Positions 7,207-61,936 of a DNA stretch of 64,000 bases are shown here, piece by piece. The notes beneath the pieces were generated by a model. It was given only the letters and a program-made list of their open reading frames with translations. It did no database searches and was not told the DNA's origin. Numbering within the stretch: position 1 is the stretch's first letter; every line of letters starts with the position of its first letter. The stretch spans positions 20,226 through 84,225 of the forward strand of contig CALXIO010000004.1 of assembly GCA_944388385.1 (NCBI GenBank), written 5' to 3'. Made by a program: the position numbers and the translations under genes. This stretch comes from an uncultured Ruminiclostridium sp. (GTDB taxonomy: Bacteria; Bacillota; Clostridia; Oscillospirales; Ruminococcaceae).

Positions 7207-7992
7207 TTATAGCTGTCTTTTTATCTTCCCTAATGCGCCCTTTTCAAGTCTTGATACCTGTGCCTGACTTATTCCTATTTCGCTTGCCACCTCTACCTGG
7301 GTCTTGCCCTTGAAAAATCTTAAATCAAGAATATGCTTTTCCCTGTCATCAAGGGAATGAAGGGCATCCTTTAATACTATTTCATCAAGCCAGGTTCTGT
7401 CGTCGTTTTTATCCCCTATCTGATCCATCATATAGATAGTATCCCCGGATTCAGAATAAACCGGCTCATACAAAGAAACAGGGTCGCTTACCGCTTCTAA
7501 GGCTATTACTACATCATGCCTGTCAGTGTCTAACTCCTTTGCGATTTCTTCAACGGTGGCCTCCTTGCCTGATTTTGAGGTCAGCTTTTCCTTTGCCTGC
7601 ATGGCTCTGTAGGCAAGATCCCTCATGGATCTGCTTACCCTTACTGAATTGCTGTCCCTCATATACCGCCTTAATTCTCCCATTATCATAGGCACAGCAT
7701 AGGTGCTGAATTTTACCCCGAATTCGGTGGAAAAATTGTCTATGGCCTTTATAAGCCCTATGCACCCCACCTGAAACAGATCGTCCGGCGGCTCTCCCCT
7801 GCCTGCAAAACGCTGAATTACGCTTAATACAAGCCTCAGATTACCGCTTATAAGCTGTTCCCTTGCATTTTCATCCCCCTGCTTTATCTTTAAAAGCAGC
7901 TCGTTTTTCTCGGACTCCTTTAATACCTTTAAGGAGGAGGTATTAACACCGCTTATTTCAACCTTATTGTAATACAAAAAAACACCGCCCAT
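7207..7992 (-). CDS. sigG: Sporulation sigma factor G (forespore, late)
   Basis: NKVEISGVNTS...GNLRLVLSVIQRF...DDLFQVGCIGLIKAIDNF...VKFSTYAVPMIMGELRRY...GISQAQVSRLEK is collinear with B. subtilis SigG. The true start may be TTG 7977, because ATG 7992 lies inside a hairpin. Confidence 0.92.
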   Translation of the reverse strand: MGGVFLYYNKVEISGVNTSSLKVLKESEKNELLLKIKQGDENAREQLISGNLRLVLSVIQRFAGRGEPPDDLFQVGCIGLIKAIDNFSTEFGVKFSTYAVPMIMGELRRYMRDSNSVRVSRSMRDLAYRAMQAKEKLTSKSGKEATVEEIAKELDTDRHDVVIALEAVSDPVSLYEPVYSESGDTIYMMDQIGDKNDDRTWLDEIVLKDALHSLDDREKHILDLRFFKGKTQVEVASEIGISQAQVSRLEKGALGKIKRQL

Positions 7993-8045: not shown

Positions 8046-10430
8046 TTATGCCAATGTAATATTGCACTTTTTACCGTTAAGGGTAGCTGATACTACCTTA
8101 GCATTTCCTAAGGCGAAATTTGCCGCAGGCTTGTTGGTTACTTCTCCGCCGGGAGCAATATATCCGTTATATGTGCTATTGATAATAATTTGATTTCCTT
8201 CTGATCCAGCGAAATCACCGTTCCAGCCATTAGCAAAATTTATATTCTCAGAAAAAGTAATAACAAGCTCCCAGGATTCTATAGCACTTGAAGTATCATT
8301 TACTATATTAAATGAATATGTACCTTCCCTATTATCCTGGTTCCATATATTTTCTCCGGAAATAGTTACACTCAGTTCTGTTATCACAGGCTTAGGTGCC
8401 GTGGTTGTGGTGGTTGTAGGTTTTGGGGTAGTAGTTGTGGTGGTAGGTTTTCTTGTGGTGGTTGTTGTGGGTCTTGGGGTTGTTGTAGTGGTAGTAGGTT
8501 TTCTTGTTGTAGTTGTTGTGGGTTTGGGAGTTGTTGTAGTGGTAGTGGGTTTTCTTGCTGTAGTTGTTGTGGGTCTTGGAGTTGTGGTAGTTGTTGTGGG
8601 ACGGGGTGAATTTGTGGTTGTGGTGGTGGGTTTTTTAGTGGTAGTGGTGGTTGAAGGCTTACTTTCCTCATCTGATGATGAGGGCTTATTTTCTTCGGTG
8701 GCTTCGGTTTCTTCAGGCTTTGAATCAGCTGTGTCAGTCTCCTCGTCGGTTTCATCCCCCGGCTCAGATGAATCTGTGCTTTCAGGCTGGGATGATCCTT
8801 CCCCGGTTTCCTCTGTGCTGTTTGCAGGAGGTACTATTATATTGTCACCGCCTGTGGTAGCATCTGCCGGAGTTGTTTCGACGGTGGTGGTAGTAGAAGC
8901 AGAGGAATTTTTGCTATCTGTTTTTGAGGTATCAACATCCACCTTATCTCTGCCTGTATAGGCAAGGCAAAGACAGATAAAGAAAATACCGATACATGAA
9001 AGTCCGCCGAAGAACCAAAAAAGGAACTTTTTCTTTTTCTTCTGCTTTTCGGGATCTTCCTCGTCAACCTGTACCGGAACCTCCGGCTCAGGCTCTTCCT
9101 TCTTGGGCTGAGGTCTGTGGGTAGCATAATAAAGCCTTGCCTCTGCCGCTGTTCTGGGTCTGTCTATCTGAGAAACCTCTGTTCTTTCATCGGGATTGAA
9201 TACAGTATCATCAAACAGCTTAGAGCCGGATGCCGCAGAAATGCCTGCCGCCGCTGTGCCTGCCGCTACAAAATTATCAAAGTCATCATTATTTGCCGCA
9301 GGCTTAGGCTCCTCAGTCTTTTTAGGCTGTGGGGGATGTGTGGCATAGTAAAGCCTTGCCTCTGCCGCAGTTCTTGGTCTGTCTATCTGAGAAACATCTG
9401 TTCTTTCATCGGGATTAAATACAGTATCATCAAACAGCTTAGAGCCGGATGCCGCCGCAACATCCTCTTTTTCGGATGCAAAAGTATCAGCAGACTGTGA
9501 TGCCATGAAATTATCAAAATCATCATTCTTAGCGGTATATGAGGGGGTAAACTGTTCAGTCTTGGGAGCTTCCGTTTTGGGAGGCTCTGTAACTGCTGCC
9601 CCGGCTGCCGCCGCTATGAAATTATCAAAGTCGTCATTATTGGCTGTGGGTAATGGCTCATCTGCCGGCTTTTCTTCCTGTGCCGCTTCGGCTGTTGCCA
9701 TTACATAATCATCAAAGGTAGCATAATCATCAGCGGAGGGTGTTTCATCCACCATAGAAGCAACAGCCGCAGCTGCAGCTACAGCCTCATCGGATGTACT
9801 ATCCTCTGTATTTGCCTTATCATCACCCTTATAATGCTCATGATTATCCGGGTCTTCCTCGGGAACATAGCCGTAGTATTCAATAGCCTCTCTTAAAATG
9901 GCCTCGTGGCGCTGTCTTTCAAGCTCCTCTGCCATTTCGGGAGTAACTCCCGGCTGCATATCCTCTACTATGGGTAAGGGCTCATCCTTTACAGGTGCAG
10001 ATGCTGAGGGACTGTCATCAATATCACTGTCAAATAAGAGAAGATCATCCATTGTCTTTGCAGATGCAACTTCCGCAGGAACAGGCTCACTGCCTGCTGA
10101 CAGATCATCATCCATACCTGCAGACAGATCGTCCTCGGTATCATAGATAACATCCTCGATATTAGCCGCTATCATATCAGCATCATAGTCGGCTGTTCTG
10201 GAGCTCATAAGTCCTGCAGATACAGTAACCGCATTACTAAAGCCGTCATCAGCAGGTCTTATTTCATCATCGTCCAGGTTTTCAAGGTCAATATCTCCGT
10301 TAAGATCACTAAGACCGTAACCCTCACGGCTCATTCTGAGGAGACTTGCCTCAAATTCATCACCCGGTGTAACGGGGCTGAAATCATCATTCATCCCGAA
10401 TACATTACCCTTTTTATTATTATTAGCCAA
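8046..10430 (-). CDS. Single-pass membrane protein: acidic repeat-rich cytoplasmic region, TM helix, Pro/Thr linker, C-terminal CBM2-like domain
   Basis: TTG start with GGGGA upstream. The TM helix FLFWFFGGLSCIGIFFICLCLAY (about 8958-9026) is preceded by KQKKKKK. PT repeats span 8385-8660. The last 112 aa (8049-8384) show CBM2-like spacing (SWELVITF, GWNGDF, NGYIAPGG, LNGKKC). Confidence 0.75.
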   Translation of the reverse strand: MANNNKKGNVFGMNDDFSPVTPGDEFEASLLRMSREGYGLSDLNGDIDLENLDDDEIRPADDGFSNAVTVSAGLMSSRTADYDADMIAANIEDVIYDTEDDLSAGMDDDLSAGSEPVPAEVASAKTMDDLLLFDSDIDDSPSASAPVKDEPLPIVEDMQPGVTPEMAEELERQRHEAILREAIEYYGYVPEEDPDNHEHYKGDDKANTEDSTSDEAVAAAAAVASMVDETPSADDYATFDDYVMATAEAAQEEKPADEPLPTANNDDFDNFIAAAAGAAVTEPPKTEAPKTEQFTPSYTAKNDDFDNFMASQSADTFASEKEDVAAASGSKLFDDTVFNPDERTDVSQIDRPRTAAEARLYYATHPPQPKKTEEPKPAANNDDFDNFVAAGTAAAGISAASGSKLFDDTVFNPDERTEVSQIDRPRTAAEARLYYATHRPQPKKEEPEPEVPVQVDEEDPEKQKKKKKFLFWFFGGLSCIGIFFICLCLAYTGRDKVDVDTSKTDSKNSSASTTTTVETTPADATTGGDNIIVPPANSTEETGEGSSQPESTDSSEPGDETDEETDTADSKPEETEATEENKPSSSDEESKPSTTTTTKKPTTTTTNSPRPTTTTTTPRPTTTTARKPTTTTTTPKPTTTTTRKPTTTTTTPRPTTTTTRKPTTTTTTPKPTTTTTTAPKPVITELSVTISGENIWNQDNREGTYSFNIVNDTSSAIESWELVITFSENINFANGWNGDFAGSEGNQIIINSTYNGYIAPGGEVTNKPAANFALGNAKVVSATLNGKKCNITLA
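8385..8660 (-). repeat. Coding low-complexity repeat: about nine units of T5-6 followed by (K/R)P, PRP or PKP
   Basis: Read directly from the translation (KPTTTTTTPKPTTTTTRKPTTTTTTPRP...). The 33-36 nt DNA periodicity is visible on the plus strand as GGTTGTGGTGGT-type units. Confidence 0.9.
9099..9530 (-). repeat. 219-nt (73-aa) tandem duplication inside the cytoplasmic region
   Basis: The cores 9099-9230 and 9318-9449 both encode SGSKLFDDTVFNPDERT(E/D)VSQIDRPRTAAEARLYYATH(R/P)PQPKK with only a few nucleotide differences. Each is preceded by an NDDFDNF motif. Confidence 0.9.
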
Positions 10431-11653: not shown

Positions 11654-12643
11654 ATGAAGGTTAAAGAACAGGTTCTTTTAATACTTGAAACAAACAAGGG
11701 AAAATATGTATCCGGTGAGGATATTGCAAAAGAGCTTTATGTAAGCCGTAATGCGGTATGGAAGGCTATAAATGCCCTGCGTAAGGACGGCTTTATAATA
11801 GATGCGGTTACAAATAAGGGGTATATGCTTGGTAAAGAGGCGGATGGCTTTACTGCCCTGAGAGTATCCTCCATGCTTAATAAAACCTGTCAGGATTGCG
11901 AAATAATTTTCTATGATACCATAACCTCCACAAACACCGTACTTAAGGAAATGGCGGAAAAGGGAGCAAAGGAAGGTACTATTCTTATAGCAGATACCCA
12001 GACAGAGGGCAGAGGCAGACGGGGACGAAGCTTCTTCTCCCCTGCCGGTACCGGTATATATATGTCGATTTTGCTTCGTCCGGGCTTTACCACCGATAAG
12101 GCCTCCCTTATTACGGTGCTTGCCGCTGTGTCGGTGGTAAGAGCAATAAAGGAAACAACAGACCTTCCTGTTAAAATCAAGTGGGTAAATGATATAATGC
12201 TTAATGATACTAAGATATGCGGTATTTTAACAGAGGCGGCGGCAGATATTGAGAATGGCCATTTACAATATGCGGTGGTGGGTATCGGTATAAATATTTC
12301 CATGCCTGAGGGGGGATTTCCCTATTATATAAATGATATTGCATCGGTTCTTTTTAATGATGAGGTTGTAATAAATGATGTAAGATGTTCGGTCAGTGCA
12401 AGGGTTATAAACAATTTCTTTGAGCTATACCATAATCTTAACGAAGCAAGGCTTATAAAGGAATATAAGGATAATTCCTGTATTTTGGGAAAAGAGGTAA
12501 GAGTATTTACCGGGGATGAAAGCTATATAGCTACTGCCCTTGATATAGATGAAAATGCCCACCTTATAGTAAAGGACAAAAATGACAGGATTTTAACTCT
12601 TACCTCCTCTGAGGTCAGCATAAGGAAAGGAGATCTGAATTGA
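11654..12643 (+). CDS. birA: Bifunctional biotin-[acetyl-CoA-carboxylase] ligase / biotin operon repressor
   Basis: N-terminal wHTH (GEDIAKELYVSRNAVWKAINALRKDG), catalytic GRGRRGR glycine-rich motif, KWVND motif. Confidence 0.92.
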   Translation: MKVKEQVLLILETNKGKYVSGEDIAKELYVSRNAVWKAINALRKDGFIIDAVTNKGYMLGKEADGFTALRVSSMLNKTCQDCEIIFYDTITSTNTVLKEMAEKGAKEGTILIADTQTEGRGRRGRSFFSPAGTGIYMSILLRPGFTTDKASLITVLAAVSVVRAIKETTDLPVKIKWVNDIMLNDTKICGILTEAAADIENGHLQYAVVGIGINISMPEGGFPYYINDIASVLFNDEVVINDVRCSVSARVINNFFELYHNLNEARLIKEYKDNSCILGKEVRVFTGDESYIATALDIDENAHLIVKDKNDRILTLTSSEVSIRKGDLN

Positions 12644-15183
12644 AAAGACTTGCAGTTTCAATAATGGCACACGTAGATGCAGGTAAGACCACCCTTTCTG
12701 AGGCTATGCTTTATCACACCGGGGATATAAGAAAGCAAGGCAGAGTAGATAACAAGGATACCCTTCTTGACAATAATCAGATAGAGCGAAGCAGAGGTAT
12801 TACAGTATTTTCAAAGCAGGCGATTTTGCATAATAACAATGATTTAATTACCCTTCTTGATACCCCGGGGCATACGGATTTTTCCGGGGAAACCGAAAGA
12901 GCCTTACAGGTAGCTGACTATGCGGTTTTACTTATCAGCGGTACAAGTGGAATACAAAACCATACCCATACATTATGGCAGTTATTAAAAAGCTACCGTG
13001 TGCCCACCTTTATTTTTGTAAATAAAATGGATATAAGCGAATTTTCAACAGAGGATTTAATGTCAAGGCTTTGCCTTAGCCTTGATGAAAGGTGTGTTTA
13101 TTTTGACAATGCCTGTGATGTTACTGAAAATGAGCTTGCGGACAATGTCGCGGTATGTGATGAGGGGCTTATGAATGAGTACCTTGAAAAGGGTAATATT
13201 TCCCCCTCAAATATTGCAAGGGCTATTAAGGAAAGGCATCTTTTCCCCTGCTTTTTCGGGTCGGCGCTTAAAAACAAGGGTATTGAGAATTTGCTGAAGG
13301 CTCTTGATATATACACCACAGAGCCTGTATATAATGAGGAATTTTCCGCTACGGTGTTTAAGATAACCGAGGACGAGCACGAAAACCGCCTTACCCATTT
13401 AAAGGTGACAGGTGGTACACTTAAAGTTAAAAGCAGTATAAAAACCGCTGATGACTGTGAAGAAAAGGTAAATGCCATAAGGATATATTCCGGGGGTAAG
13501 TTTATTACCGCCTCTGAGGTTCCCTGCGGTACTGTGTGCTGTGTTACCGGCCTTGAAAAAACCTACAGCGGACAGGGACTTGGATATTCTGCGGACTCTC
13601 CCCTGCCGGTACTGGAGCCGTTATTTTCCTACAAGGTGGAATTGCCCCCTGATATGGACGCTGTAAAGGGTCTTGCCATGATGAAGAAATTGGAGCAGGA
13701 GGACCCTCTTTTACAGGTTGTGTGGAATGAGCAGTTAAAGGAAATCCACATAAGGCTTATGGGGGAAATTCAGCTTGAAATACTGAAAAGCGAGGCTGAA
13801 AAACGCTTCGGGGTTAAGATAGATTTCGGCAAGGGCAGTATTGCTTACCGTGAAACAATAGCCTCCCCTGTTATCGGCATAGGACACTATGAGCCGTTAC
13901 GACATTATGCAGAGGTACAGCTTTTGCTTGAGCCGGGGGCTGAGGGCAGCGGGCTGAGATTTTATTCCGAATGTAGCGAGGATAAACTGGACAGAAACTG
14001 GCAAAGACTTATTCTTACCCACCTTGCAGAAAAGACCCACGTGGGGGTGCTTACAGGCTCACCCATAACGGATATGAAAATTTTCCTTATAGCAGGTCGT
14101 TCCCACCTTAAGCATACCGAAGGGGGAGATTTCAGACAGGCGGTTTACAGGGCGGTAAGACAGGGTCTTATGAAGGCGGAAAGCGTTCTTTTAGAGCCAT
14201 GGTACAGCTTTAATCTTGCATTACCCTCTGACTGTGTGGGAAAGGCTATGAATGATCTTTCTCTTATGAAGGCGGAGTTTTCACAGCCAGTTAATGAGGG
14301 GGATGAATATATAATCACCGGCACAGCCCCGGCATCGGGAATGACGGGATATTTATCCCAGGTTACCGCCTATACAAGGGGTAAGGGCAGGCTTATATGT
14401 ATTCCCGACGGATATAAGCCCTGTCTTAATAGTGAAGAGGTAATAGCAAGCTTTAATTACGACCCGGAGGCGGATATTGAAAATACCCCGGATTCTATCT
14501 TCTGTTCCCATGGGGCAGGCTTTAATGTAAAGTGGGATGAGGTGGATAACTACGCCCATATTTCCCTTCAGAAGGAAAAGGATGAGGAGCCGGAAATTAA
14601 AACAGTACAGCAAAGAAGAATTGACGCTTCAGATGAAGAGCTGATGGCAATTTTTGAACGTACCTACGGCAAGATAAAAAGAGATCAGCATTATGCCATG
14701 AGAAAAATCCCGGAGAAAAAGCAGGAAAATAAAACAAGGGCGGCTAAAATTCCCTCCGGGCCTGAATATCTGCTGGTGGACGGGTATAATATAATTTTTG
14801 CCTGGGATGAGCTTAAAAAGGCGGCGGCGGAAAATCTTGACTTTGCAAGAAATAAGCTGATTAACATTCTCTGTAACTATCAGGGCTTTAAGCGAAATGA
14901 GGTTATAGTGGTATTTGATGCCTATAAGGTTAAAGGAAATAAGGGTGAAGCGGAAAGACAGGGCGGCATCACCATTGTATATACAAAGGAAGCAGAAACT
15001 GCGGATATGTATATAGAAAAGGCCACCCGTACCCTTGGCAAAAAGCACAGAGTAAGAGTGGCTACATCAGATTCACTTGAACAGCTTATTATACTGGGAG
15101 GCGGTGCCATAAGGGTTTCCGCAAATGAATTTAAGGCTGAGGTTTTGGATATAGAAAAGCAGATAAAGGAATATTTAAGCTGA
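12640..15183 (+). CDS. EF-G/TetM-like translational GTPase fused to a C-terminal Rae1/YacP-type NYN ribonuclease domain
   Basis: G1 AHVDAGKTT, G3 DTPGH, G4 NKMD, and collinear with five-domain TetM/EF-G to about residue 640. Residues 709-847 (nt 14764-15183) have LLVDGYNIIFAW, VIVVFDAY, TKEAETADMYIEK, VATSDSLEQ and GAIRVSANEF, matching B. subtilis Rae1/YacP motif for motif. The TTG start overlaps the birA stop by 4 nt. Confidence 0.85.
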   Translation: MKRLAVSIMAHVDAGKTTLSEAMLYHTGDIRKQGRVDNKDTLLDNNQIERSRGITVFSKQAILHNNNDLITLLDTPGHTDFSGETERALQVADYAVLLISGTSGIQNHTHTLWQLLKSYRVPTFIFVNKMDISEFSTEDLMSRLCLSLDERCVYFDNACDVTENELADNVAVCDEGLMNEYLEKGNISPSNIARAIKERHLFPCFFGSALKNKGIENLLKALDIYTTEPVYNEEFSATVFKITEDEHENRLTHLKVTGGTLKVKSSIKTADDCEEKVNAIRIYSGGKFITASEVPCGTVCCVTGLEKTYSGQGLGYSADSPLPVLEPLFSYKVELPPDMDAVKGLAMMKKLEQEDPLLQVVWNEQLKEIHIRLMGEIQLEILKSEAEKRFGVKIDFGKGSIAYRETIASPVIGIGHYEPLRHYAEVQLLLEPGAEGSGLRFYSECSEDKLDRNWQRLILTHLAEKTHVGVLTGSPITDMKIFLIAGRSHLKHTEGGDFRQAVYRAVRQGLMKAESVLLEPWYSFNLALPSDCVGKAMNDLSLMKAEFSQPVNEGDEYIITGTAPASGMTGYLSQVTAYTRGKGRLICIPDGYKPCLNSEEVIASFNYDPEADIENTPDSIFCSHGAGFNVKWDEVDNYAHISLQKEKDEEPEIKTVQQRRIDASDEELMAIFERTYGKIKRDQHYAMRKIPEKKQENKTRAAKIPSGPEYLLVDGYNIIFAWDELKKAAAENLDFARNKLINILCNYQGFKRNEVIVVFDAYKVKGNKGEAERQGGITIVYTKEAETADMYIEKATRTLGKKHRVRVATSDSLEQLIILGGGAIRVSANEFKAEVLDIEKQIKEYLS

Positions 15184-15963: not shown

Positions 15964-16038
15964 TGGCACCCCCTGCGGGAATCGAACCCACAACTAACCC
16001 TTAGGAGGGGTTTATTATATCCATTTAACTAAGGAGGC
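15964..16038 (-). tRNA. tRNA-Arg (anticodon CCU)
   Basis: Hand-folded cloverleaf: acceptor GCCUCCU / AGGGGGU (two G-U pairs), D loop with GG, anticodon stem AACCC / GGGUU with loop CUCCUAA, T arm GUGGG-UUCGAUU-CCCGC, encoded CCA. Confidence 0.85.
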
Positions 16039-17144: not shown

Positions 17145-17393
17145 TTATTCAGACATCTTATTTAGCTCAGCGAGGCAATCCGCACATATATTCTTGCCCT
17201 TGAACTGCCGGATATCGCTTGCGTTATTACAGAAGGAACATGCAGGAGCATACTTCTTGAGAATAATTGCATCATCCTCAACATAAATTTCAAGTGAGTC
17301 CTTGATGCTGATATCAAGTGTTCTTCTCAGCTCAATGGGAAGCACTATTCTTCCCAATCCGTCTACCTGTCTTACTATACCTGTAGATTTCAT
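17145..17393 (-). CDS. abrB: AbrB-family transition-state regulator (SpoVT/AbrB swapped-hairpin domain + C-terminal CxxC...CxxC)
   Basis: MKSTGIVRQVDGLGRIVLPIELRRTLDI..., then CSFCNN...CADC as in clostridial AbrB homologues. Confidence 0.85.
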   Translation of the reverse strand: MKSTGIVRQVDGLGRIVLPIELRRTLDISIKDSLEIYVEDDAIILKKYAPACSFCNNASDIRQFKGKNICADCLAELNKMSE

Positions 17394-17794
17394 TTTTCTT
17401 TCTCCTTTAAAATTAACTTTCCTTGCGAATGGAAGAATAATCTGTCAAAACTATCTTCCGATTGATATTTTACCAAATTACTTTTAAATTGTCAATCAGC
17501 CATTTTTCGTTAATTTTGGTTACATTTAAAAATCCAAAATTTACATATATTTACATTAAAGTTAATATTATTTTATTTTAATAGCAAAATTGAGGAATTT
17601 TGAACTTATTTTGTAACCATATTCTTAATATTTTACAAATTTAAATTGTTTTTTGTCATTTTTGTGAGTGAAAATTCTACTATTTGCACAAATAATTGAC
17701 AGTTTTTAGCTCTTTGTTCGTCAATTTACCTTGAACGATATGTTAAATAAAATATTGCAAGCATATAAATTTATATATATCAGAGGTTTTTACC

Positions 17795-18391
17795 ATGAAT
17801 TTTATAATTTTCTTTGCTTTTCTTATATCATTTGTGCTGGCGATATTAAGCGGAAGCACTAAGGAATATACTGAGGTACTACTCAGCGAATCGGCTTCAG
17901 CAGTGACTTTGTGTATAAACATATGCGGAAGTATTTGTTTTTGGAGTGGCATTATGAAAGTGGCGGAATCTTCGGGAATTGTGAAAAAAATAGCCAAATT
18001 GCTGTTTTTGCCCATAAGCCTGATTTTTAAGGGAATCGACAAAAACGGCAAAGCAATAGGCTATATCACATTGAATATAATTTCCAACCTTTTAGGCCTT
18101 GCAAATGCCTCTACACCCCTTGGTATAATGGCCATGCAGGAGTTATATAAGGAGGAGGGCTGTCAGGGTGTTGCTACTGACAATATGGTTATGCTGTGCG
18201 TTATAAATTCCGCAAGCCTGCAGCTTTTTCCGGCTACGGTGGCGGCTATGCGTACTGCCTACGGCAGTGATAACCCCCTTGTGATACTGCCGGCGGTGTG
18301 GGTAGTATCAATTCTTGCCTTTGCCGTAAGTGTTACTGTGGCTAAAATTCTTTCTAAGACATTCCCTTATAAAAAGGCGGTGGAAAAATGA
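17795..18391 (+). CDS. spmA: Spore maturation protein A (nucleoside-recognition / Gate domain membrane protein)
   Basis: Membrane protein of SpmA type and size, translationally coupled (ATGA overlap) to spmB. Confidence 0.8.
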   Translation: MNFIIFFAFLISFVLAILSGSTKEYTEVLLSESASAVTLCINICGSICFWSGIMKVAESSGIVKKIAKLLFLPISLIFKGIDKNGKAIGYITLNIISNLLGLANASTPLGIMAMQELYKEEGCQGVATDNMVMLCVINSASLQLFPATVAAMRTAYGSDNPLVILPAVWVVSILAFAVSVTVAKILSKTFPYKKAVEK

Positions 18392-18906
18392 GTATAAGTA
18401 ATTATATCGTTCCTGTAATGGTGATTTTAATTCTCGGGATAGCATTTTTCACTAAAACGGATATTTTTGACTCCTTTTGCAAGGGGGCAAAGGAGGGGCT
18501 AAATACAACAGTTGATATTTTACCTGCCCTTATAGGCCTTATGACCTGTATAGGACTTTTGCGTACCTCTGGGTTTACCTATATTCTCACCGGATTTTTA
18601 AGCCCTGTCACTTCCCTGCTTAATTTTCCGGATGAATGTACTCCCCTTGTACTTATAAGGCCTCTTTCGGGCAGCGGCGCTTTGGCGGTATTTGAGGATG
18701 TGCTTAAAAATAACGGTCCGGACAGCCTTCCGGGGCTTATAGCATCCACCCTTATGGGCTCATCGGAAACCACATTTTATACTGTGGCTGTATATTTCGG
18801 GGCGGTAAAAATAAAGAAAACAAGGCATACCATTCCCTCTGCTTTAAGCGGGGATCTCACCGCCTTTCTTACAGCCTCGTTTGTGGTGGGGATTTTATGC
18901 CTGTGA
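18388..18906 (+). CDS. spmB: Spore maturation protein B
   Basis: Membrane protein paired with spmA. Shows the LIRPLSGSGA motif region typical of SpmB. Confidence 0.8.
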   Translation: MSISNYIVPVMVILILGIAFFTKTDIFDSFCKGAKEGLNTTVDILPALIGLMTCIGLLRTSGFTYILTGFLSPVTSLLNFPDECTPLVLIRPLSGSGALAVFEDVLKNNGPDSLPGLIASTLMGSSETTFYTVAVYFGAVKIKKTRHTIPSALSGDLTAFLTASFVVGILCL

Positions 18907-54182: not shown

Positions 54183-54875
54183 TTATACACCGTACTTAGC
54201 TGTGTTTACCTTAACACCGGGGCCCATAGTAGATGATACTGTGCAGCTCTTTAAGTATGCACCCTTAGCTGCAGCGGGCTTAGCCTTAACGATAGCGTCC
54301 ATAAGAGCGTTGAAGTTTTCTTCAAGCTTTTCCTTACCGAAGGAAGCCTTACCGATGGGGCAGTGAATAATGTTGGACTTGTCAAGACGGTACTCAATCT
54401 TACCTGCCTTAGCATCAGCAACAGCCTTTGCTACATCGGGAGTAACTGTACCTGCCTTGGGGTTAGGCATAAGGCCACGGGGACCGAGAACCTTACCGAG
54501 ACGACCTACAACACCCATCATATCGGGAGTTGCAATAACTACGTCGAAGTCCATCCAGCCGTCTGTAATCTTCTTTACTGTATCATCATCAGCTACGAAA
54601 TCTGAGCCTGCGTCAATAGCAGCCTGGATCTTTTCGCCCTTAGCGAATACAAGTGTACGTACAGTCTTACCTGTACCGTTAGGAAGTACAACTGCACCTC
54701 TAACCTGCTGATCAGCGTGACGTGAGTCAACACCGAGTCTTACGTGAAGCTCAACTGTTTCATCGAACTTTGCCTTTGCTGTCTGGCAAACTAAGTCAAG
54801 AGCTTCGTTTGCATCATATGCCTTTGTGCTGTCGATCAGCTTTGCGCTGTCAACGTATTTCTTACCTTGCTTCAT
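54183..54875 (-). CDS. rplA: 50S ribosomal protein L1
   Basis: [15 protein letters not shown]...[14 protein letters not shown]...[14 protein letters not shown] is canonical L1. Confidence 0.97.
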
Positions 54876-54924
54876 TCATTATCCTCCTTGTGGTGAAACG
54901 GAATAAATCCTCCCACTGTCTTAA

Positions 54925-55350
54925 TTAGTCAACTACTTCTACACCCATTGAACGGGCTGTACCTGCGATCATAGACATAGCAGCCTCAATAGAACCTGCG
55001 TTAAGGTCACGCATCTTTGTTTCAGCGATCTGCTGAACCTGAGCCTTAGTGATCTTAGCAACCTTGGTCTTGTTGGGTGTGCCGGATGCAGTTTCAATTC
55101 CGCATGCCTTCTTAATAAGAACAGCAGCAGGCGGAGTCTTTGTAATAAATGAAAAACTCTTGTCGGCATAAACTGTAATTACTACAGGGATAATCAGACC
55201 AACATCATTCTTTGTACGCTCGTTGAACTCCTTTGTGAATGCCATGATATTTACACCGTGCTGACCTAATGCAGGGCCAACCGGGGGAGCCGGTGTTGCT
55301 TTACCGGCAGGAATTTGTAATTTAATAAATCCTGTAACCTTCTGAGCCAT
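54925..55350 (-). CDS. rplK: 50S ribosomal protein L11
   Basis: [43 protein letters not shown] is canonical L11. Confidence 0.97.
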
Positions 55351-55382
55351 TTTAACTCTACCTCCAATTAAACAATTAGAAC

Positions 55383-55919
55383 TTAATATTCAACCTTTTT
55401 AAGAACTGAAATCTCAACCTCTGCAGAGGATGTACGTCCCATCATAGAAATGGCAACCTTTGCCTTTCCTGCAGCCTCGTCAATTTCTTCAACGGTACCT
55501 TCCATACCTACAAGGTTACCGCTTACAAATCTGACTGTATCGCCCACAGCAAAGGAAATCTCTGCACGCTTTTGATTTATGCCGAGATTAGCTACCTCGG
55601 CTTCTGTCAGGGGGATGGGTTTTGATCCGGGACCTACAAATCCTGTAACGCCTCTTGTGTTGCGGCATACATACCAGGTATTGTCGGTAAGCACCATCTT
55701 TACAAAAACATAGCTGGGATAAAGGAAGGTTTCCTTGGGGTTGCCCTTGTTGTCAACAATAATGTTGCCCTCTTCATCAAGCTCGTTTACCACAGGAACG
55801 ATAGCATCCTCAATAAGATCCTGCATATCATTGTTCTCTGCGTACTTTAAGATGTTGTTTCTTACACTCTTTTCATAACCTGAGTAGGTGTGAACAATGT
55901 ACCACTTTGCCTCAGACAT
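55383..55919 (-). CDS. nusG: Transcription termination/antitermination factor NusG
   Basis: [13 protein letters not shown]-terminus and a KOW motif at the C-terminus ([22 protein letters not shown]). Confidence 0.95.
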
Positions 55920-55940
55920 CCTGTGTCCCTCCTAACTTAC

Positions 55941-56231
55941 TCAGTCTGTAACACTCATGCCCAGCGCCAGCTTAATAAGCATGCTGAACAGAATATCCAG
56001 ACCCCATACAAAAATACCGGATACAACAAGTGTAATAAGAACTACTACTGTGTTGTTGAATACAGTCTTCTTGCCGGGCCACACAACCTTTTTGAACTCG
56101 GATTTTAAATCCTTGAAGTATTTAACGATGGATTTCTTGGGCTTCTTAGCTGCTGCAGCCTTTTTGCTGTTCTTCTCGTTAGCCTTCTTCGCCTTTGCTT
56201 CTTCTTTAGTTAAGCTTGTGTCCTTAGCCAT
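55941..56231 (-). CDS. secE: Preprotein translocase subunit SecE (with a Lys/Ala-rich N-terminal extension)
   Basis: YFKDLKSEFKKVVWPGKK followed by one TM helix. Its position between rpmG and nusG is the conserved one. Confidence 0.85.
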   Translation of the reverse strand: MAKDTSLTKEEAKAKKANEKNSKKAAAAKKPKKSIVKYFKDLKSEFKKVVWPGKKTVFNNTVVVLITLVVSGIFVWGLDILFSMLIKLALGMSVTD

Positions 56232-56246
56232 CTGTCAATACCTCCC

Positions 56247-56396
56247 TTACTTGGTCTCCTTGTGTGGAGTATGCTTCTTGCAGAACCTGCAATACTTGGT
56301 CATCTCAAGTCTGTCGGGATCGTTCTTCTTGTTCTTCTTGGTGTTGTAGTTGCGCTGTTTGCACTCAGTACACGCAAGGGTAATTTTAACTCTCAC
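56247..56396 (-). CDS. rpmG: 50S ribosomal protein L33 (49 aa, not in the ORF track)
   Basis: GTG start after GGAGGTG. (M)[48 protein letters not shown] shows the CxxC...CxxC zinc-ribbon L33. Confidence 0.9.
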
Positions 56397-56582: not shown

Positions 56583-56897
56583 TTATGCCGGAGTTTTTAA
56601 GGTAATGGCATAAACCTTATTTATCTGCATGGGATAGCTTTCGGCAACCATGCCGTCATAATAAACTACCACCTCATCCCCCACACTAAAATTGGTCATG
56701 CTGTCCTTAAGCTCTACATCAAGTGATACAGAATATTCCATATTGTCGCTTACAATAAGAATACTGTCATTGCTTGTTTGCTTTACTACGCCTGTAATAT
56801 TGGGCTCGTTTTGTATAACGCTGTTCATTGTTCTATTGCAGCCTGTAACAGTTAAAGCTAAAATCATTGTTAAAAATAATGCCGTAATTTTTTTCAT
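56583..56897 (-). CDS. Small lipoprotein
   Basis: Signal peptide with lipobox LTVTGC, then a beta-rich mature part. Family not verified. Confidence 0.6.
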   Translation of the reverse strand: MKKITALFLTMILALTVTGCNRTMNSVIQNEPNITGVVKQTSNDSILIVSDNMEYSVSLDVELKDSMTNFSVGDEVVVYYDGMVAESYPMQINKVYAITLKTPA

Positions 56898-56912
56898 AAG
56901 AGCTCCTTTCGT

Positions 56913-57125
56913 TTATCTCAGCTTAATATAAAGCAATATCTGAAATCCGCATAAAAGTGCCAGAAGCACCACCACAAATACCTGGGCTACTCCCCATTGG
57001 GGTATGGAAAATGCCACAAACAAATCCGCAAGTCCTAAAACCACCGCATTTATAAGAAAACGCCTCTGAGCTTTTTTATCTGAGGTATTTTTAAGCTGAA
57101 TACCTACGTTTTGCTTACGCTTCAT
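56913..57125 (-). CDS. Hypothetical 70-aa two-TM membrane protein
   Basis: Basic N-terminus followed by two hydrophobic helices. It overlaps the folD stop by 11 nt, suggesting coupling. Confidence 0.45.
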   Translation of the reverse strand: MKRKQNVGIQLKNTSDKKAQRRFLINAVVLGLADLFVAFSIPQWGVAQVFVVVLLALLCGFQILLYIKLR

Positions 57126-57963
57126 AGTTTCCTGACTGGATACGCTTTGCCATAAGGGTGTTTTTCATCAGCATGGCAATAGTCATAGGTCCAACTCCGC
57201 CCGGTACGGGGGTTATGTATGAGCACTTGGGGGCTACCTCGTCAAACTTAACATCACCGCAAAGCTTGTTTTCGGCGTTTCTGTTCATGCCTACATCAAT
57301 TACTACAGCCCCGTCCTTTACCATATCTGCGGTTACAAAATCAGCTCTGCCAACAGCACTTACCAGTATATCTGCCCTGCGGCAAACCTCTGCTAAATTC
57401 TTTGTTTTGGAGTGGCAGATAGTAACTGTGGCATTTTCGTGAAGTAAAAGCATGGCCATGGGCTTGCCTACTATGTTTGATCTGCCGATAACCACACATT
57501 CCTTGCCTGCCACATCTGTACCTGTGGAATGGATAAGCTCCATAACTCCTGCGGGAGTACAGGGTAAAAAGGCGTAGTTTCCTATCATTATCTTGCCTAC
57601 ATTAACAGCGCTGAAGGCATCCACATCCTTTATGGGGGAAATTGCCTTTATTACCTTTTCTTCATCTAAGTGACCGGGTAACGGAAGCTGACAGAGTATG
57701 CCGTTTACCTTATCATCCTTATTAAGGGTGTCGATAAGCTCTAATAATTCCTCCTCCTTTGTGTCCTCGGGAAGGGCATATTCAAAGGATTTAATTCCGC
57801 ATACCTCACAGGCCTTCTTCTTGTTATTTACATAAACTCTGCTTGCCTGGTTATTTCCTACTATTATAACTGCAAGGCCTACCTCAAGACCCTCTTTTTC
57901 AATGGTATCCTTTATCTGCTGTTTTACTGCCGCAGATACTGCCTTTCCGTCAATAAGCTGCAT
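57115..57963 (-). CDS. folD: Bifunctional methylenetetrahydrofolate dehydrogenase / methenyl-THF cyclohydrolase
   Basis: MQLIDGKAVSAAVK..., GILCQLPLP, GRSNIVGKP and TPVPGGVGPMT motifs. Confidence 0.95.
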   Translation of the reverse strand: MQLIDGKAVSAAVKQQIKDTIEKEGLEVGLAVIIVGNNQASRVYVNNKKKACEVCGIKSFEYALPEDTKEEELLELIDTLNKDDKVNGILCQLPLPGHLDEEKVIKAISPIKDVDAFSAVNVGKIMIGNYAFLPCTPAGVMELIHSTGTDVAGKECVVIGRSNIVGKPMAMLLLHENATVTICHSKTKNLAEVCRRADILVSAVGRADFVTADMVKDGAVVIDVGMNRNAENKLCGDVKFDEVAPKCSYITPVPGGVGPMTIAMLMKNTLMAKRIQSGNYEA

Positions 57964-57965
57964 AA

Positions 57966-59030
57966 TTATTCCTCGCTTTCGTTTTTATCGGTATTATCTT
58001 CGGTTTCTTCCTCGGTATTTTCTTCTACATATAAAATACTGGGAGCTTCATCGGAAGACTGCCTCATGGTCTTTCTTGCCTTAGCCTTTTCTTCAAGCAC
58101 TTTCTGGTGCTTTTCGTACTTTTCTATTCTTTCCTTGCTTTCAGGGGTATTGCAATACATTACATAGCCTGCCTTCTTTGTCTTTGCGGTCTTGCAATAG
58201 ATAAAAATACCTAAGGCTAAAGCAAAGGAAACTGCCGCTACTATCTGTGATACTCTGAAATCCCCTATCATAAGGCTGTCTGTTCTGAGGCCCTCGATCC
58301 AGAAGCGACCCAGACCGTACCACATTACATAAAGCAGGAAAATTTCACCGTCAAAGCTACGAAGCTTCTTTGAGTAGAAATGAAGGGCTAAAAATCCCAC
58401 AAGACACCATAAGCTTTCATATAAGAAACAGGGATGAACAAGGGCATATACACCCTCCCCTATTTCATCAAGTCTTATCTGCTCCTGTATAACAATGGGG
58501 TCCTCTATAATAGTAGTACCTGTCATACCCCAGGGGAGCTTTCCTGCCGTGGGAGCGCCGTATGCCTCCTGGTTTACAAAGTTGCCCCATCTGCCTATGC
58601 ACTGACCGATAAGAAGTCCAAGTCCACCAAGGTCAAACATGGCAGGTAATTTCACCTTGCGGATAACACACATTATTGCCGCCGCTATTGCCGCAAAGAT
58701 AACGCCGCCGTATATGGCAAGTCCTCCGTGACGCAGATCAAAGAAATTTATATCCGTGTCAATGAAGATACAGAAGTATGCCCTTGCCCCTATAAAGCCG
58801 AAAATTATTGCAACAAATACCACATCAAATACATGGTCCGCAATAAGTCCGAACTGCTTTGTTCTCTTCATGGCATAAATAAAAGCAAGTATCACACCTA
58901 AGGCAATAATAATGCCATACCAGTAAATATCAATTCCGAATATGGAAAAGGCTACTCTGTCTATTGCAAGTGAGCCGCTGAAAAGGTTAGGAAACTCAAC
59001 CTTTGCAGTAAGAAGCTGTAATCCGTTCAT
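57966..59030 (-). CDS. lgt: Prolipoprotein diacylglyceryl transferase with a ~80-aa charged C-terminal extension
   Basis: IYWYGIIIALG, GARAYF, GQCIGRWGNFVNQEAYG and GLGRFWIEGLRTD motifs. Confidence 0.92.
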   Translation of the reverse strand: MNGLQLLTAKVEFPNLFSGSLAIDRVAFSIFGIDIYWYGIIIALGVILAFIYAMKRTKQFGLIADHVFDVVFVAIIFGFIGARAYFCIFIDTDINFFDLRHGGLAIYGGVIFAAIAAAIMCVIRKVKLPAMFDLGGLGLLIGQCIGRWGNFVNQEAYGAPTAGKLPWGMTGTTIIEDPIVIQEQIRLDEIGEGVYALVHPCFLYESLWCLVGFLALHFYSKKLRSFDGEIFLLYVMWYGLGRFWIEGLRTDSLMIGDFRVSQIVAAVSFALALGIFIYCKTAKTKKAGYVMYCNTPESKERIEKYEKHQKVLEEKAKARKTMRQSSDEAPSILYVEENTEEETEDNTDKNESEE

Positions 59031-59051
59031 TTTGTCATACCTTCCTGTTAT

Positions 59052-60320
59052 TTATATTTTGTTCTTTATAATAGAGATAGTGCTGTTTTCTTCATCAAAA
59101 TTCTTTAAGGCATTAACCACATCCTCAAATGTGATATCTGCAATAAAATCCACTAAATCATAGGGCTGTGCTCCTGCCAGTTCAAACTCCAGAAGATTGG
59201 ACGCCACAGATTCAACACCGCCGAACATTCCCACAATTTCACCGTAGGTCTTGTTTCTTATGGTGTCAAAATCATCACGGCTGATGCCCTCCTTTTTAAG
59301 TTTGGCAAACTCCTTTAATATCTCCTCATATACCTTGTCCGGGTCAGCGGATTCGCCCTCCGCCATAAGTCCGAAAAAGCCTCTGCCGTTAAAGGCTCTT
59401 ACATAGAAGTTATTATTTATAAGGTTGCTTTCGTACATACGATTATAAAAATCAGAGGTTTTGCCAAGGCATATTTCTCCCATAAGATTATAGAGAATAT
59501 AATCCCTGTAACATTCGCTGCCCTCTTTTGCAGGTAATTTAAAGCCTATATTAAATAAGGGTGTGGCACAGGGTAATTCCTGTATCATTCTGCGCTTGTA
59601 TACCCTGTCGGATTCCTCGGGGACTTTTACCGATAACTGAGGGTCTTCGGATGCAATAAGCATTTTATCGCATACCGCCAGTACCTTATCTACATCTAAG
59701 TTTCCGGCTACTGCCAGTACCATATTATTAAGATTATAGAAGGTGTTATAGCAACGGTAAAGCAAATACTTATCTATATGGGAAATACTTTCTACTGTTC
59801 CTGCTATGTCAATTCTTACGGGATTTTTCTCATACATACCCTGTAGGCAGTTGAAAAATACTCTCCAGTCGGGAGCATCCTCGTACATTCTTATTTCCTG
59901 ACCGATAATTCCCTGCTCCTTAGCTACTGTCTCATCGGTGAAGTAGGGCTTTTGTACAAAGCCCAAGAGGATCTCAAGGTTTTCCTCCAGCTTATCCGCA
60001 CAGGAAAAGAGATAGGCTGTTTTATCAAAGCTGGTAAAGGCATTTGCTGAAGCACCGGTGGCGGCATAAAGTGCAAATGCGTCACAGTCCTCATTTTCAA
60101 ACAGCTTATGCTCAAGATAGTGGGCAATTCCCTCGGGGACTGTTACATAATCCTCATCCTTTGCGGTTTTGAAGGTGGTATCAACAGAGCCGTAACGAGT
60201 GCCGAATAAGGCATAGGCTGTGGAAAAGCCCTTCATGGGATAAAGCATTATTGTGCATCCGCTTTTATGCTTTATGCGGTAGCATTCTTCGTTTATTCTT
60301 TTGTTTACTATCCTTTCCAT
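59052..60320 (-). CDS. M16-family zinc peptidase (active subunit)
   Basis: Inverted zincin motif HYLEH (GIAHYLEHKLFE) and insulinase-like length. Confidence 0.88.
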   Translation of the reverse strand: MERIVNKRINEECYRIKHKSGCTIMLYPMKGFSTAYALFGTRYGSVDTTFKTAKDEDYVTVPEGIAHYLEHKLFENEDCDAFALYAATGASANAFTSFDKTAYLFSCADKLEENLEILLGFVQKPYFTDETVAKEQGIIGQEIRMYEDAPDWRVFFNCLQGMYEKNPVRIDIAGTVESISHIDKYLLYRCYNTFYNLNNMVLAVAGNLDVDKVLAVCDKMLIASEDPQLSVKVPEESDRVYKRRMIQELPCATPLFNIGFKLPAKEGSECYRDYILYNLMGEICLGKTSDFYNRMYESNLINNNFYVRAFNGRGFFGLMAEGESADPDKVYEEILKEFAKLKKEGISRDDFDTIRNKTYGEIVGMFGGVESVASNLLEFELAGAQPYDLVDFIADITFEDVVNALKNFDEENSTISIIKNKI

Positions 60321-61597
60321 TATTCTTCCTCCTTTTTCTCTGAAGTAAGAACATATACGGTATCAAGGGTAACCTTGTTTGCGTTTTCGATAACACGCTT
60401 TAAGTCAACGGACATAATCTCCTCAATTTCATCCTCGGGAGAATGAATATCATCCCCTGTCATAATAAGGGGCAGATACCACCTTACCATTGAGCCTACG
60501 CCGTCTCTTACGCTGCGGCGGGCATTGACCATGGCCTTTTTAGCCTGCTCAAGCTCCTTTTCGGAAACATTTCCGGCCTTTACCTCATCAAGCTGGTAAA
60601 TTATCTCATCCCTTGCCTTTTCTATATTGTCACTTTCAACACCGCAGTTTACAACAACAAACTTCTTGGAGGTATTAAAAGGACCGCTGCAATAGTAACA
60701 AAGGGACATTTTCTCACGGACTATGGTAAACAGCTTTGAGGTAACTGCACCGGGGCCGCCGTAAATGTGATTCATTACAAGAGTACCGATATTATCATCG
60801 CTGTCAACCTTGTAGCCTATTACCATTTTGCTCTGGTTTACATCCATAAGCTCAGTAACATATTGAGGCTCTGTTTTAAGGGCGCTCTTATTTGTTACGC
60901 ATTGTTCAATATCGGCTCTTTCTATTTTTGAAAATGCAGAGGTGAGCTTTTCTTCAACCGCTGAAAAATCATTACAGCCTACACAGAATATCTCACATCT
61001 GTAACTGCTAAGCATATGCTTATAGGCATTGTAAACAATATCCGGAGTAAGTTCCTTTGCCTTTTCGGTTTCGTTCCAGAAGGCTCTTGGCTCATCCTTG
61101 CAGACTGTCTTTAATGCCTGCGCCATGGCATAGATTCTTTTATCGTTTATAATGCTTTCTATATCCTCAATAAGCACATTTCTTTCTGTTTCAAATGCCT
61201 TTTGGGGGAATGTGCCGTTTTGTGTAACCGGAGATAAAAGACAGTCAAGGAGAATTTCTGTAATGCCCTCGGTGAGCTTTTCACCGTTTAATGCGTATTT
61301 GTCATCAAGGCAAACCGCCTCTATGGCAAGCTGTTGTAAATCCCCTACGGTAGTGGAGCTGTCGTTTATGCTTGCGGCATACATACGGGCAAGGAGGTTT
61401 GAAAATTCCTTATTTGTGGGGTATTTGCTGTTGTTTTTGGATAACAGCTGAGGTATAAGGGAATTTGCGGTTACCTTGTCCTTATCTATAACAGAATAGA
61501 AATTTATGCTGATCAGATTGAATTTATATCTGTCATCGGTGATTTTGCTGAAGTATACTTCCTTTGCAATTTCCTTGCGGTAAAGGGGGTTACTCAT
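60320..61597 (-). CDS. M16-family peptidase-like protein lacking the HxxEH motif (non-catalytic partner)
   Basis: Same size class and paired with the active subunit (stop/start overlap). No HxxEH seen. Confidence 0.75.
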   Translation of the reverse strand: MSNPLYRKEIAKEVYFSKITDDRYKFNLISINFYSVIDKDKVTANSLIPQLLSKNNSKYPTNKEFSNLLARMYAASINDSSTTVGDLQQLAIEAVCLDDKYALNGEKLTEGITEILLDCLLSPVTQNGTFPQKAFETERNVLIEDIESIINDKRIYAMAQALKTVCKDEPRAFWNETEKAKELTPDIVYNAYKHMLSSYRCEIFCVGCNDFSAVEEKLTSAFSKIERADIEQCVTNKSALKTEPQYVTELMDVNQSKMVIGYKVDSDDNIGTLVMNHIYGGPGAVTSKLFTIVREKMSLCYYCSGPFNTSKKFVVVNCGVESDNIEKARDEIIYQLDEVKAGNVSEKELEQAKKAMVNARRSVRDGVGSMVRWYLPLIMTGDDIHSPEDEIEEIMSVDLKRVIENANKVTLDTVYVLTSEKKEEE

Positions 61598-61936
61598 TTT
61601 ATCATTCCTTTCTTAAAAAAGCGTCCTTATAAGTATACCATACTATTAAATAAAATTCCATACTTTTTACCAAAAAATCAGAAAAAAAGCAAAAAAAATG
61701 AGCGTGATAACATCACACTCGCAAATGAAATAATGTATAATGTGTAGAACAAAAGAAAGGAGACAACTAAAAAACTAAACATTGTAAGGAGGTTTTCTCC
61801 TTACTATGGTTAAATTATAACGCAAAATAAACAATTTGTCAATTAGTAGGTCGAAAGTTTTTGTTAAAACGTTAAAAGATTGTGCAAATACCCTATAAAG
61901 ATAAGATATTAAATATACACAATGCACAAAAAATAT

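Follow-up and report, generated by a model that had tools for sequence, protein, structure and literature searches.

We analysed a 64,000-nucleotide (nt) stretch of DNA, referred to below as the window, from an uncultured Ruminiclostridium sp. (GenBank assembly GCA_944388385.1, contig CALXIO010000004.1, positions 20,226 to 84,225 of the forward strand). One of its genes encodes an 847-amino-acid (aa) protein in which an EF-G/TetM-like translational GTPase is followed, in the same reading frame, by a NYN_YacP nuclease domain of the Rae1 type. Judging from the sequence of this protein and its relatives, we consider it rather likely that the fusion is a ribosome-docking, GTP-gated mRNA endonuclease, most likely serving the quality control of stalled or collided ribosomes in Clostridia. 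It is probably a quality-control nuclease of this kind rather than a tetracycline-resistance determinant. An original prediction, made from the DNA letters alone, had already pointed towards ribosome quality control, which we judged to be the most reasonable reading.

The combination of a TetM-like protein with YacP has been noted in Clostridia before. Two surveys recorded the architecture (in "ten species of clostridiales") without giving a function, and left the role open between resistance and maturation of ribosomal RNA (rRNA) (Atkinson 2015, BMC Genomics, PMC4342817; Matelska 2017, NAR, PMC5499597). The gene described here has the same architecture, comes from the same class and is a member of that family. 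Our full-text literature searches found no functional study of the fusion. The original prediction was likewise aware of no functional description; the architecture itself had already been reported in both surveys. What the sequences add to the surveys is a very large family, a clade apart from the ribosomal protection proteins (RPPs), domain IV loops of its own, a folded extension, a helix within the tether and a lack of conserved neighbours. The family is known by architecture only, and the gene is of value for the experimental handle that it offers and for setting resistome annotation right.

A complete translational GTPase and a Rae1-type nuclease in one reading frame

The gene (12640..15183, + strand) is an uninterrupted open reading frame (ORF) of 847 codons that starts with TTG. 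This TTG overlaps the TGA stop codon of birA (TTGA, 12640-12643), with a GGAG located 7 nt upstream, and the choice of start is supported by the consensus N-terminus of the homologues, MK(R/K). The GTPase motifs lie at aa 10-18 (AHVDAGKTT), 52-55 (RGIT), 74-78 (DTPGH) and 128-131 (NKMD), and those of the nuclease at aa 711-717 (LLVDGYN), 757-762 (VVFDAY), 786-791 (ETADMY), 807-811 (VATSD) and 822-827 (GAIRVS), so that every motif listed in the original prediction was found in its place. Searches with Pfam profiles matched GTP_EFTU (aa 4-225, E=2e-48), EF-G_D2 (234-308), EFG_III (326-397), EFG_IV (399-514) and EFG_C (516-595), followed by NYN_YacP (PF05991; aa 711-844, E=4e-49) with 167.2 bits against a gathering cut-off of 24.6. 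The profiles for the G domain, for domains II-V and for the nuclease, proposed earlier as a check of the domain boundaries, were therefore all matched, and the claim that a translational GTPase with all its domains is fused in frame to a Rae1/YacP-type NYN nuclease is borne out by the single ORF, the Pfam domains and the intact active site. The features of the gene are collected in Table 1.

Table 1. Positions of the fusion gene, its parts and the gene upstream, numbered from the first letter of the window
Feature	Positions	Strand	Basis or remark
Whole fusion gene: 847-aa EF-G/TetM-like GTPase with NYN_YacP (Rae1-type) nuclease	12640..15183	+	stop codon included
Ribosome-binding site AAGGAAAGGAG (GGAG 12629-12632), TTG start at 12640, 4-nt TTGA overlap with the birA stop	12622..12643	+	direct reading
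G domain (aa 1-230): G1 AHVDAGKTT, G2 RGIT, G3 DTPGH (catalytic His78), G4 NKMD; short G' insert as in TetM	12640..13329	+	
Domains II (aa 231-320) and III (aa 321-398)	13330..13833	+	Pfam EF-G_D2, EFG_III; AlphaFold2 (AF2) model
Domain IV (aa 399-515), showing the highest conservation in the protein, with family-specific, near-invariant tip loops	13834..14184	+	Pfam, alignment
Domain V (aa 516-595)	14185..14424	+	Pfam EFG_C
Conserved extension behind domain V, folded as helix, beta-hairpin and helix (aa 596-640)	14425..14559	+	alignment, AF2
Tether (aa 641-708) with conserved short helix ELMAIFERTYGKIKRD (aa 663-682, nt 14626-14685)	14560..14763	+	alignment, AF2
NYN_YacP / Rae1-type endoribonuclease domain (aa 709-847)	14764..15180	+	Pfam, PDB match, alignment
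birA (HTH_11, BPL_LplA_LipB, BPL_C), upstream gene, not a functional part of the system	11654..12643	+	

Conservation of the catalytic residues was counted in alignment columns of 74 full-length representatives sharing 39-52% identity with this protein; counts by strict regular-expression motifs proved misleading on such diverse representatives and were set aside. The GTPase residues K16, D74, K129 and D131 are present in all 74 and H78 in 73, and the nuclease residues D714, Y716, N717, D760, D789 and D811 are likewise found in 74/74. This invariance indicates that both activities are under selection. As read from their residues, the GTPase (G1-G4 and His78) and the NYN nuclease (four Asp and GYN) are both catalytically complete.

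The nuclease domain resembles Rae1 without its C-terminal tail

The C-terminal region matched the structures of B. subtilis YacP/Rae1 (PDB 5MQ8/5MQ9, E=7e-27) and is 45.5% identical to B. subtilis Rae1 over 134 aa. Its catalytic Asp residues D714 (in D-G-Y-N), D760, D789 and D811 correspond to D7, D53, D81 and D104 of Rae1. Failure of the last 140 aa to score against NYN_YacP, or absence of the acidic residues, had been named beforehand as evidence against the fusion; the score of 167.2 bits and the presence of the four Asp point the other way. The Rae1 motifs quoted in the original prediction also proved correct when compared with 5MQ8/5MQ9 and with an annotated rae1 gene. AF2 modelled the NYN domain confidently.

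The NYN_YacP profile was matched only over positions 1-136 of its 166, and the fusion's domain lacks a counterpart of the C-terminal tail of Rae1 (residues 138-170). For stand-alone YacP proteins, two basic C-terminal helices have been predicted (Matelska 2017, PMC5499597). With B. subtilis Rae1 the fusion has in common the NYN_YacP fold, D-G-Y-N and the four catalytic Asp, and a ribosome-linked role is expected for it as well. The two differ in their setting: Rae1 is a 170-aa single domain with a tail, encoded in an rlmB-rae1-sigH operon, whereas the fusion's NYN domain has no tail, is preceded by 708 aa (a 640-aa GTPase part and the tether), and the corresponding operon slot is empty.

The GTPase body differs from tetracycline protection proteins

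Automated pipelines label members of this family as TetM/W/O/S ribosomal protection proteins, as the original prediction had anticipated. Two properties of the GTPase body make this label probably misleading: it falls below the curated cut-off for such proteins, and it does not carry loop III of Tet(M). The best NCBIfam match was tet_protect (NF012153), at 390.2 bits against a cut-off of 775; the specific Tet models were all far below their own cut-offs, and so were the models for EF-G (TIGR00484, 277 bits against 659; NF009381, 342 bits against 583). Identity was 28% to Tet(M), 27% to Tet(O), 32% to TetB(P) and about 27-28% to EF-G; for four sampled resistance or resistance-like GTPases (24-32%), it is the same as for EF-G. 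The alignment to Tet(M)/Tet(O) forms one collinear stretch of ~600 aa, while that to EF-G is broken up by the lack of most of the G' insert (~50 G' residues fewer than in T. thermophilus EF-G). EF-G was the top PDB match both by sequence and by fold: a Foldseek search with the full AF2 model returned only EF-G entries (top matches, E=1e-53), with nothing informative for the C-terminal extension.

Domain IV is the best-conserved region of the whole protein, with a mean column identity of 0.81 across 78 species. Its tip carries two family-specific, near-invariant loops, GxGHYEPLRHYAEV (aa 413-426) and AGRxHxKHTEGGDFRQA (aa 485-501). The position of loop III in Tet(M) (L505-YYSPV-S511, within GLYYSPVS; GLYYSPVSTPADF) is occupied here by AGRSHLKHTEGGDF, which is near-invariant in the family. 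Loop III of Tet(M) domain IV is considered key for dislodging tetracycline (PMC4750697). His489 in the second loop aligns with a domain IV His of T. thermophilus EF-G, H573.

A neighbour-joining (NJ) tree of 18 fusions and four RPP or RPP-like proteins, with two EF-G sequences as outgroups, placed the fusions in one monophyletic group (100/100) and the four RPP or RPP-like proteins in another (100/100), the two being sister groups. This tree is rough, with a small sample and 100 bootstraps, and we accordingly regard as provisional that the GTPase bodies form a monophyletic clade whose sister group is that of the tetracycline protection proteins.

Compared with Tet(M), Tet(O) and TetB(P), the fusion shares the collinear five-domain, EF-G-like body and the short G' insert; it differs in having the nuclease domain, another C-terminal extension, AGRxHxKHTEGGDF in place of loop III, and a context that is neither mobile nor related to resistance. 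Compared with EF-G, it shares the GTPase motifs, the fold of domains II-V and the His of the domain IV loop, and differs by the absence of the large G' subdomain, by another domain IV loop I and by its extra C-terminal modules.

These comparisons bear on the proposal that the fusion is an antibiotic ribosomal-protection protein, acting against tetracycline or another A-site or 30S drug, with a nuclease that adds, for example, the destruction of mRNA on drug-stalled ribosomes. Such a resistance role was suggested by Atkinson 2015 (PMC4342817), and erythromycin-induced collisions engage Rae1 in B. subtilis (PMC13622287). The tet_protect match, the collinearity with Tet(M)/Tet(O) with its short G' insert, and the position of the fusion clade as sister to the RPPs agree with it. 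Against this, the match reaches only about half of its cut-off (390 bits against 775), the protein is no closer to Tet(M) and the other resistance-type GTPases than to EF-G, and the tetracycline-dislodging loop is replaced by a different invariant motif. Moreover, the fusions form a clade separate from the RPPs, their nuclease residues are invariant although protection alone would not require them, and they are spread over many commensal lineages, where their chromosomal surroundings vary and include no efflux partners, leader peptides or mobile elements. We regard a protection role as quite unlikely.

A folded extension and a partly conserved tether connect the two enzymes

The ~65 aa between GTPase and nuclease had been described as a Lys/Glu-rich linker. 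The region is not featureless: domain V is followed by a folded module (aa 596-640), and the tether beyond it contains a conserved helix at aa 663-682, leaving only aa 641-662 and 683-708 variable. In the module, S619, F621 and G625 are invariant in the representatives (74/74), and AF2 predicted a confident helix, beta-hairpin, helix fold; no such module is present in Tet(M), Tet(O) or TetB(P). The two variable stretches of the tether flank the helix motif ELMxIFERTYG. AF2 placed disorder at aa 644-664 and 677-701, which suggests that the NYN domain is flexibly tethered. Proteins of the Tet(M)/Tet(O) type have a short C-terminal extension that ends in a functional helix; the extension of the fusion is a different and longer one, and its helix at 663-682 might be an analogue of that helix, though the comparison showed no significant similarity.

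Across the family, the length of the tether ranges from 60 to 192 aa and that of the G' region from 58 to 363 aa. Two members are unusually long owing to low-complexity inserts rich in Gly, Ala, Ser, Asp and Arg: one of 1156 aa (P0139) carries a very long insert in the G' region, and one of 1069 aa (P0208) has its main insert in the tether and smaller ones in the G' region.

The fusion is conserved as a unit in many Clostridia

The identical 847-aa protein is present on several independent contigs. The best 120 clusters at 90% identity all comprise proteins of 824-907 aa that are 58-68% identical to it and carry the GTPase, the EF-G III/IV/C and the NYN_YacP Pfam domains. Among the best 80 species-representative genome loci, 80/80 encode a full-length fusion at 46-59% identity. 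These loci belong to Oscillospiraceae, Ruminococcus, Faecalibacterium, Intestinimonas, Flavonifractor, Anaerovorax and many Lachnospiraceae (Blautia, Dorea, Herbinix, Acetatifactor and Eubacterium xylanophilum), and annotated records add Monoglobus pectinilyticus and Agathobacter rectalis as carriers. This survey, called for in the original prediction, found the gene conserved as a fusion in many Clostridia genomes.

A search with the last 252 aa (extension, tether and NYN domain) against 1.84 billion representative proteins yielded 512 clusters at 50% identity with E<=1e-30. The best 150 matches are fusions or fragments of fusions, since in 150/150 the aligned part continues past the NYN domain, on its upstream side, into the tether or extension. 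The architecture is common to hundreds of 50%-identity clusters, and purifying selection keeps it in hundreds of lineages.

This conservation also bears on whether two adjacent genes were joined by a sequencing or assembly error. A stop codon in the linker, named earlier among the observations that would reveal two genes, is absent from the ORF, and the same uninterrupted architecture recurs in the 80 genome loci and in more than 120 clusters at 90% identity. We found nothing in favour of such an error, which the identical protein on independent contigs further contradicts. Because the fusion is conserved across many genomes, we exclude an assembly artefact, whose probability we put at close to nil.

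Three further sequences from these searches were set apart. A full-length fusion (L063) lies on a 6.7-kb contig labelled Alloprevotella sp. (Bacteroidota); since all other matches are from Clostridia, this probably reflects a binning error and not a transfer. A 181-aa protein (P0234) that is 69% identical to the NYN domain was rejected as a stand-alone relative, being encoded on a 777-nt contig, and was treated as a fragment. In a 204-aa protein (P0250), an IspE-kinase-like N-terminus is joined to a fusion-type NYN domain, probably as a chimeric or mis-assembled metagenomic ORF.

Genomic context and the stand-alone rae1 slot

The local gene order is an mrp/NUBPL-type ATPase gene, a terminator-like hairpin, birA, the fusion, a GNAT acetyltransferase gene with a promoter-like site of its own, a gene for tRNA-Arg, and fba on the opposite strand. 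In the window, no mobile elements or resistance partners were found around the fusion, the surroundings being chromosomal housekeeping and sporulation genes. A tblastn search with neighbours from the window (mrp, birA, GNAT, fba, abrB, spmAB and ybaK) against the 80 related loci identified no conserved neighbour, and in an all-against-all clustering of the flanking ORFs each family was confined to at most 11 of 78 loci, with no gene recurring directly beside the fusion. The translational coupling to birA proposed earlier is real here as a TTG/TGA overlap; it is lineage-specific, as birA is absent from the vicinity of the fusion both in the 80 related loci and in the closest relatives (67% identity). 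The coupling is for this reason uninformative on function.

Two local arrangements in relatives were recorded. In Eubacterium xylanophilum ATCC 35991 (L080 7002-13370), the fusion lies in a translation cluster, DUF1385-prmC-prfA-fusion-SpoU (rlmB-like) methylase, with the stop of the fusion overlapping the start of the methylase gene; this was seen in 1/80 loci. In the closest relatives (67% identity), smpB is located 3.8 kb downstream of the fusion (L091 12367-12831). We treated the latter linkage as coincidence, smpB being near the fusion neither in the window nor in the 80 other loci.

In B. subtilis and C. difficile, rlmB-rae1/NYN-sigH, part of a (cysS-mrnC-)rlmB-rae1-sigH operon, precedes the rpmG-secE-nusG cluster. 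In the window, the rpmG-secE-nusG-rplK-rplA cluster (56396..54183, - strand) lies ~40 kb from the fusion, with no rlmB-rae1-sigH in the preceding slot. That slot (56583-62692, - strand) instead holds genes for a DUF3221 protein, folD, lgt, two M16 peptidases and a NERD-domain protein. The slot is also empty in the rpmG-nusG clusters of Monoglobus and Agathobacter, two cultured fusion-bearing species. We found an NYN gene besides the fusion neither in the window nor in 1.4 Mb of related loci, and within the PLSDB records of Monoglobus and Agathobacter that contain the fusion there is no other NYN gene. The empty slot and the missing second NYN gene fit a replacement of stand-alone Rae1 by the fusion, for which we consider them suggestive.

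The PLSDB entries concerned (NZ_OY725736/NZ_OY725740, Monoglobus; OY725877/OY725879, Subdoligranulum; NZ_CP143948, Agathobacter) span 200-500 kb and contain core genes (secA, nusG-rplK-rpoB); these "plasmids" look like mislabelled pieces of chromosome. Neither Pusillibacter nor Subdoligranulum has rlmB/NYN after mrnC. On Pusillibacter faecalis pMM59_01 (L096 5965-8114), mrnC abuts an NFACT (RqcH-type) ribosome quality-control gene and not rlmB-yacP, which suggests that the canonical mrnC-rlmB-yacP operon has been rearranged in Oscillospiraceae. The NCBIfam library contains no Rae1 model.

A proposed mechanism and its alternatives

EF-G recognises the rotated, hybrid state of the ribosome, and domain IV of EF-G/TetM-type factors itself fills the 30S A site. 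Because domain IV would occupy the A site, the NYN domain of the fusion most likely cuts outside it. The original prediction had placed the action of Rae1 in the A site. This premise is outdated: Rae1 cuts at the tail of stalled ribosomes, and its discoverers have dropped their own A-site docking model (PMC12407103). Rae1, the only characterised YacP protein, performs translation-dependent mRNA cleavage (PMC12407103, PMC13622287), and according to a 2026 preprint it generates substrates for transfer-messenger RNA (tmRNA) on collided ribosomes (PMC13622287). Of the two ribosomes in native B. subtilis disomes, the stalled one is in a non-rotated state and the collided one in a rotated/hybrid state (PMC10897456).

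We propose that the GTP form of the fusion would first bind the factor site of the ribosome, as EF-G and TetM do, with the His/Lys-rich tip of domain IV entering the decoding centre. Binding may be TetM-like, to a stalled, non-rotated ribosome whose A site is accessible, or EF-G-like, to a collided, rotated ribosome that is unable to translocate. The NYN domain, on its ~68-residue tether, would then act outside the A site, its likely target being mRNA in the region that Rae1 cuts, at the entry channel or at the junction between ribosomes. As a rough polymer estimate, the tether may typically reach 60-80 Å, and more when extended. Cleavage would truncate the mRNA, GTP hydrolysis triggered by the sarcin-ricin loop (through His78) would release the factor, and tmRNA/SmpB would rescue the ribosomes, by analogy with the Rae1/trans-translation pathway of B. 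subtilis. The GTPase body would take over any ribosome targeting that the C-terminal tail supplies in stand-alone Rae1. The job proposed here for the fusion is that of SmrB of E. coli and Cue2/NONU-1 of eukaryotes, collision-dependent endonucleases that cut mRNA at stalled or collided ribosomes and so enable rescue. These enzymes have an unrelated nuclease fold, SMR instead of NYN, and their recruitment goes through contacts at the collision interface or through ubiquitin instead of a translational GTPase fused to them.

Several points weigh against this proposal. Ribosome binding, GTP dependence, the substrate (mRNA or rRNA) and the position of the cut are all inferred. The AF2 model has a predicted TM-score (pTM) of 0.44, so that the arrangement of the domains and their reach are not modelled, and the reach given above is an estimate from polymer length. 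No conserved gene neighbour in the 80 related loci points to a pathway, and replacement of stand-alone rae1 by the fusion is unproven. Finally, the GTPase body is sister to real tetracycline protection proteins in the NJ tree, which leaves room for an antibiotic-related role.

The choice of substrate is where a different function would enter. A factor for rRNA or tRNA processing, or for ribosome inactivation, would dock on ribosomes or pre-ribosomes through its GTPase and cut rRNA with its NYN domain during maturation, hibernation or turnover. An older prediction for YacP drew on the mrnC-rlmB-yacP operon (Matelska 2017, PMC5499597); the position of the fusion between prfA and the rlmB-like SpoU methylase gene in Eubacterium xylanophilum would agree with it, and the His/Lys-rich domain IV loops could contact rRNA. 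We consider this alternative unlikely, as the sole characterised YacP protein makes translation-dependent cuts in mRNA, the SpoU adjacency is confined to 1/80 loci, and nothing ties the family to assembly GTPases.

A nuclease that cuts mRNA could also serve a translation shut-off of the abortive-infection type, triggered by stress or phage, with global mRNA cutting when ribosomes stall on foreign transcripts. The 2026 preprint speculates on a defence by Rae1 against invading mRNA (PMC13622287), and the fusion, a single gene, would combine sensor and effector in a self-contained way. The fusion had no PADLOC match, its locus lacks a defence-island or mobile context, and its conservation is broad and core-gene-like with no patchy distribution visible; we give this possibility very little weight.

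The quality-control nuclease that we favour can be taken a step further, with much less confidence. It is conceivable, though we think it doubtful, that the fusion has replaced stand-alone Rae1 in much of the gut Clostridia (Oscillospirales, Lachnospirales and Monoglobales), that its EF-G-like body is a GTP-gated sensor of ribosomes unable to translocate, and that the RPPs are a sister lineage derived from such a rescue factor. If the GTPase clade is truly the sister of the protection proteins, this bears on the origin of those resistance genes.

That a Rae1-type nuclease occurs naturally fused to a translational GTPase hints, on evolutionary grounds, at an action of this nuclease next to the factor-binding site. 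There is no structure of ribosome-bound Rae1, because the association is transient (2026 preprint, PMC13622287). The GTPase could be locked on ribosomes, with GDPNP or by mutation of His78, which would offer a practical handle for cryo-electron microscopy on how Rae1-type nucleases engage the ribosome. The resistance label, meanwhile, sits on genes of abundant gut commensals (Faecalibacterium, Agathobacter, Ruminococcus and Blautia) and can inflate resistome counts.

Other features of the window

Between the GNAT gene and fba, a tRNA-Arg(CCT) gene (15964-16038, - strand) has terminator-like hairpins on both sides. An AbrB/SpoVT-type regulator gene (MazE_antitoxin Pfam match) and an spmA/spmB-like pair (Gate domains) occupy 17145-18906, and a sigma-70-family factor is encoded at 7207-7992; as a set, these genes point to a spore-forming host among the Clostridia. 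At 8046-10430 (- strand), a 794-aa protein has internally repeated acidic segments, a long Thr/Pro-rich repeat run (PRPTTTTT/RKPTTTTTT/PKPTTTTT) and, at its C-terminus, a CBM_2 domain for cellulose binding; it probably binds carbohydrates at the cell surface or after secretion.

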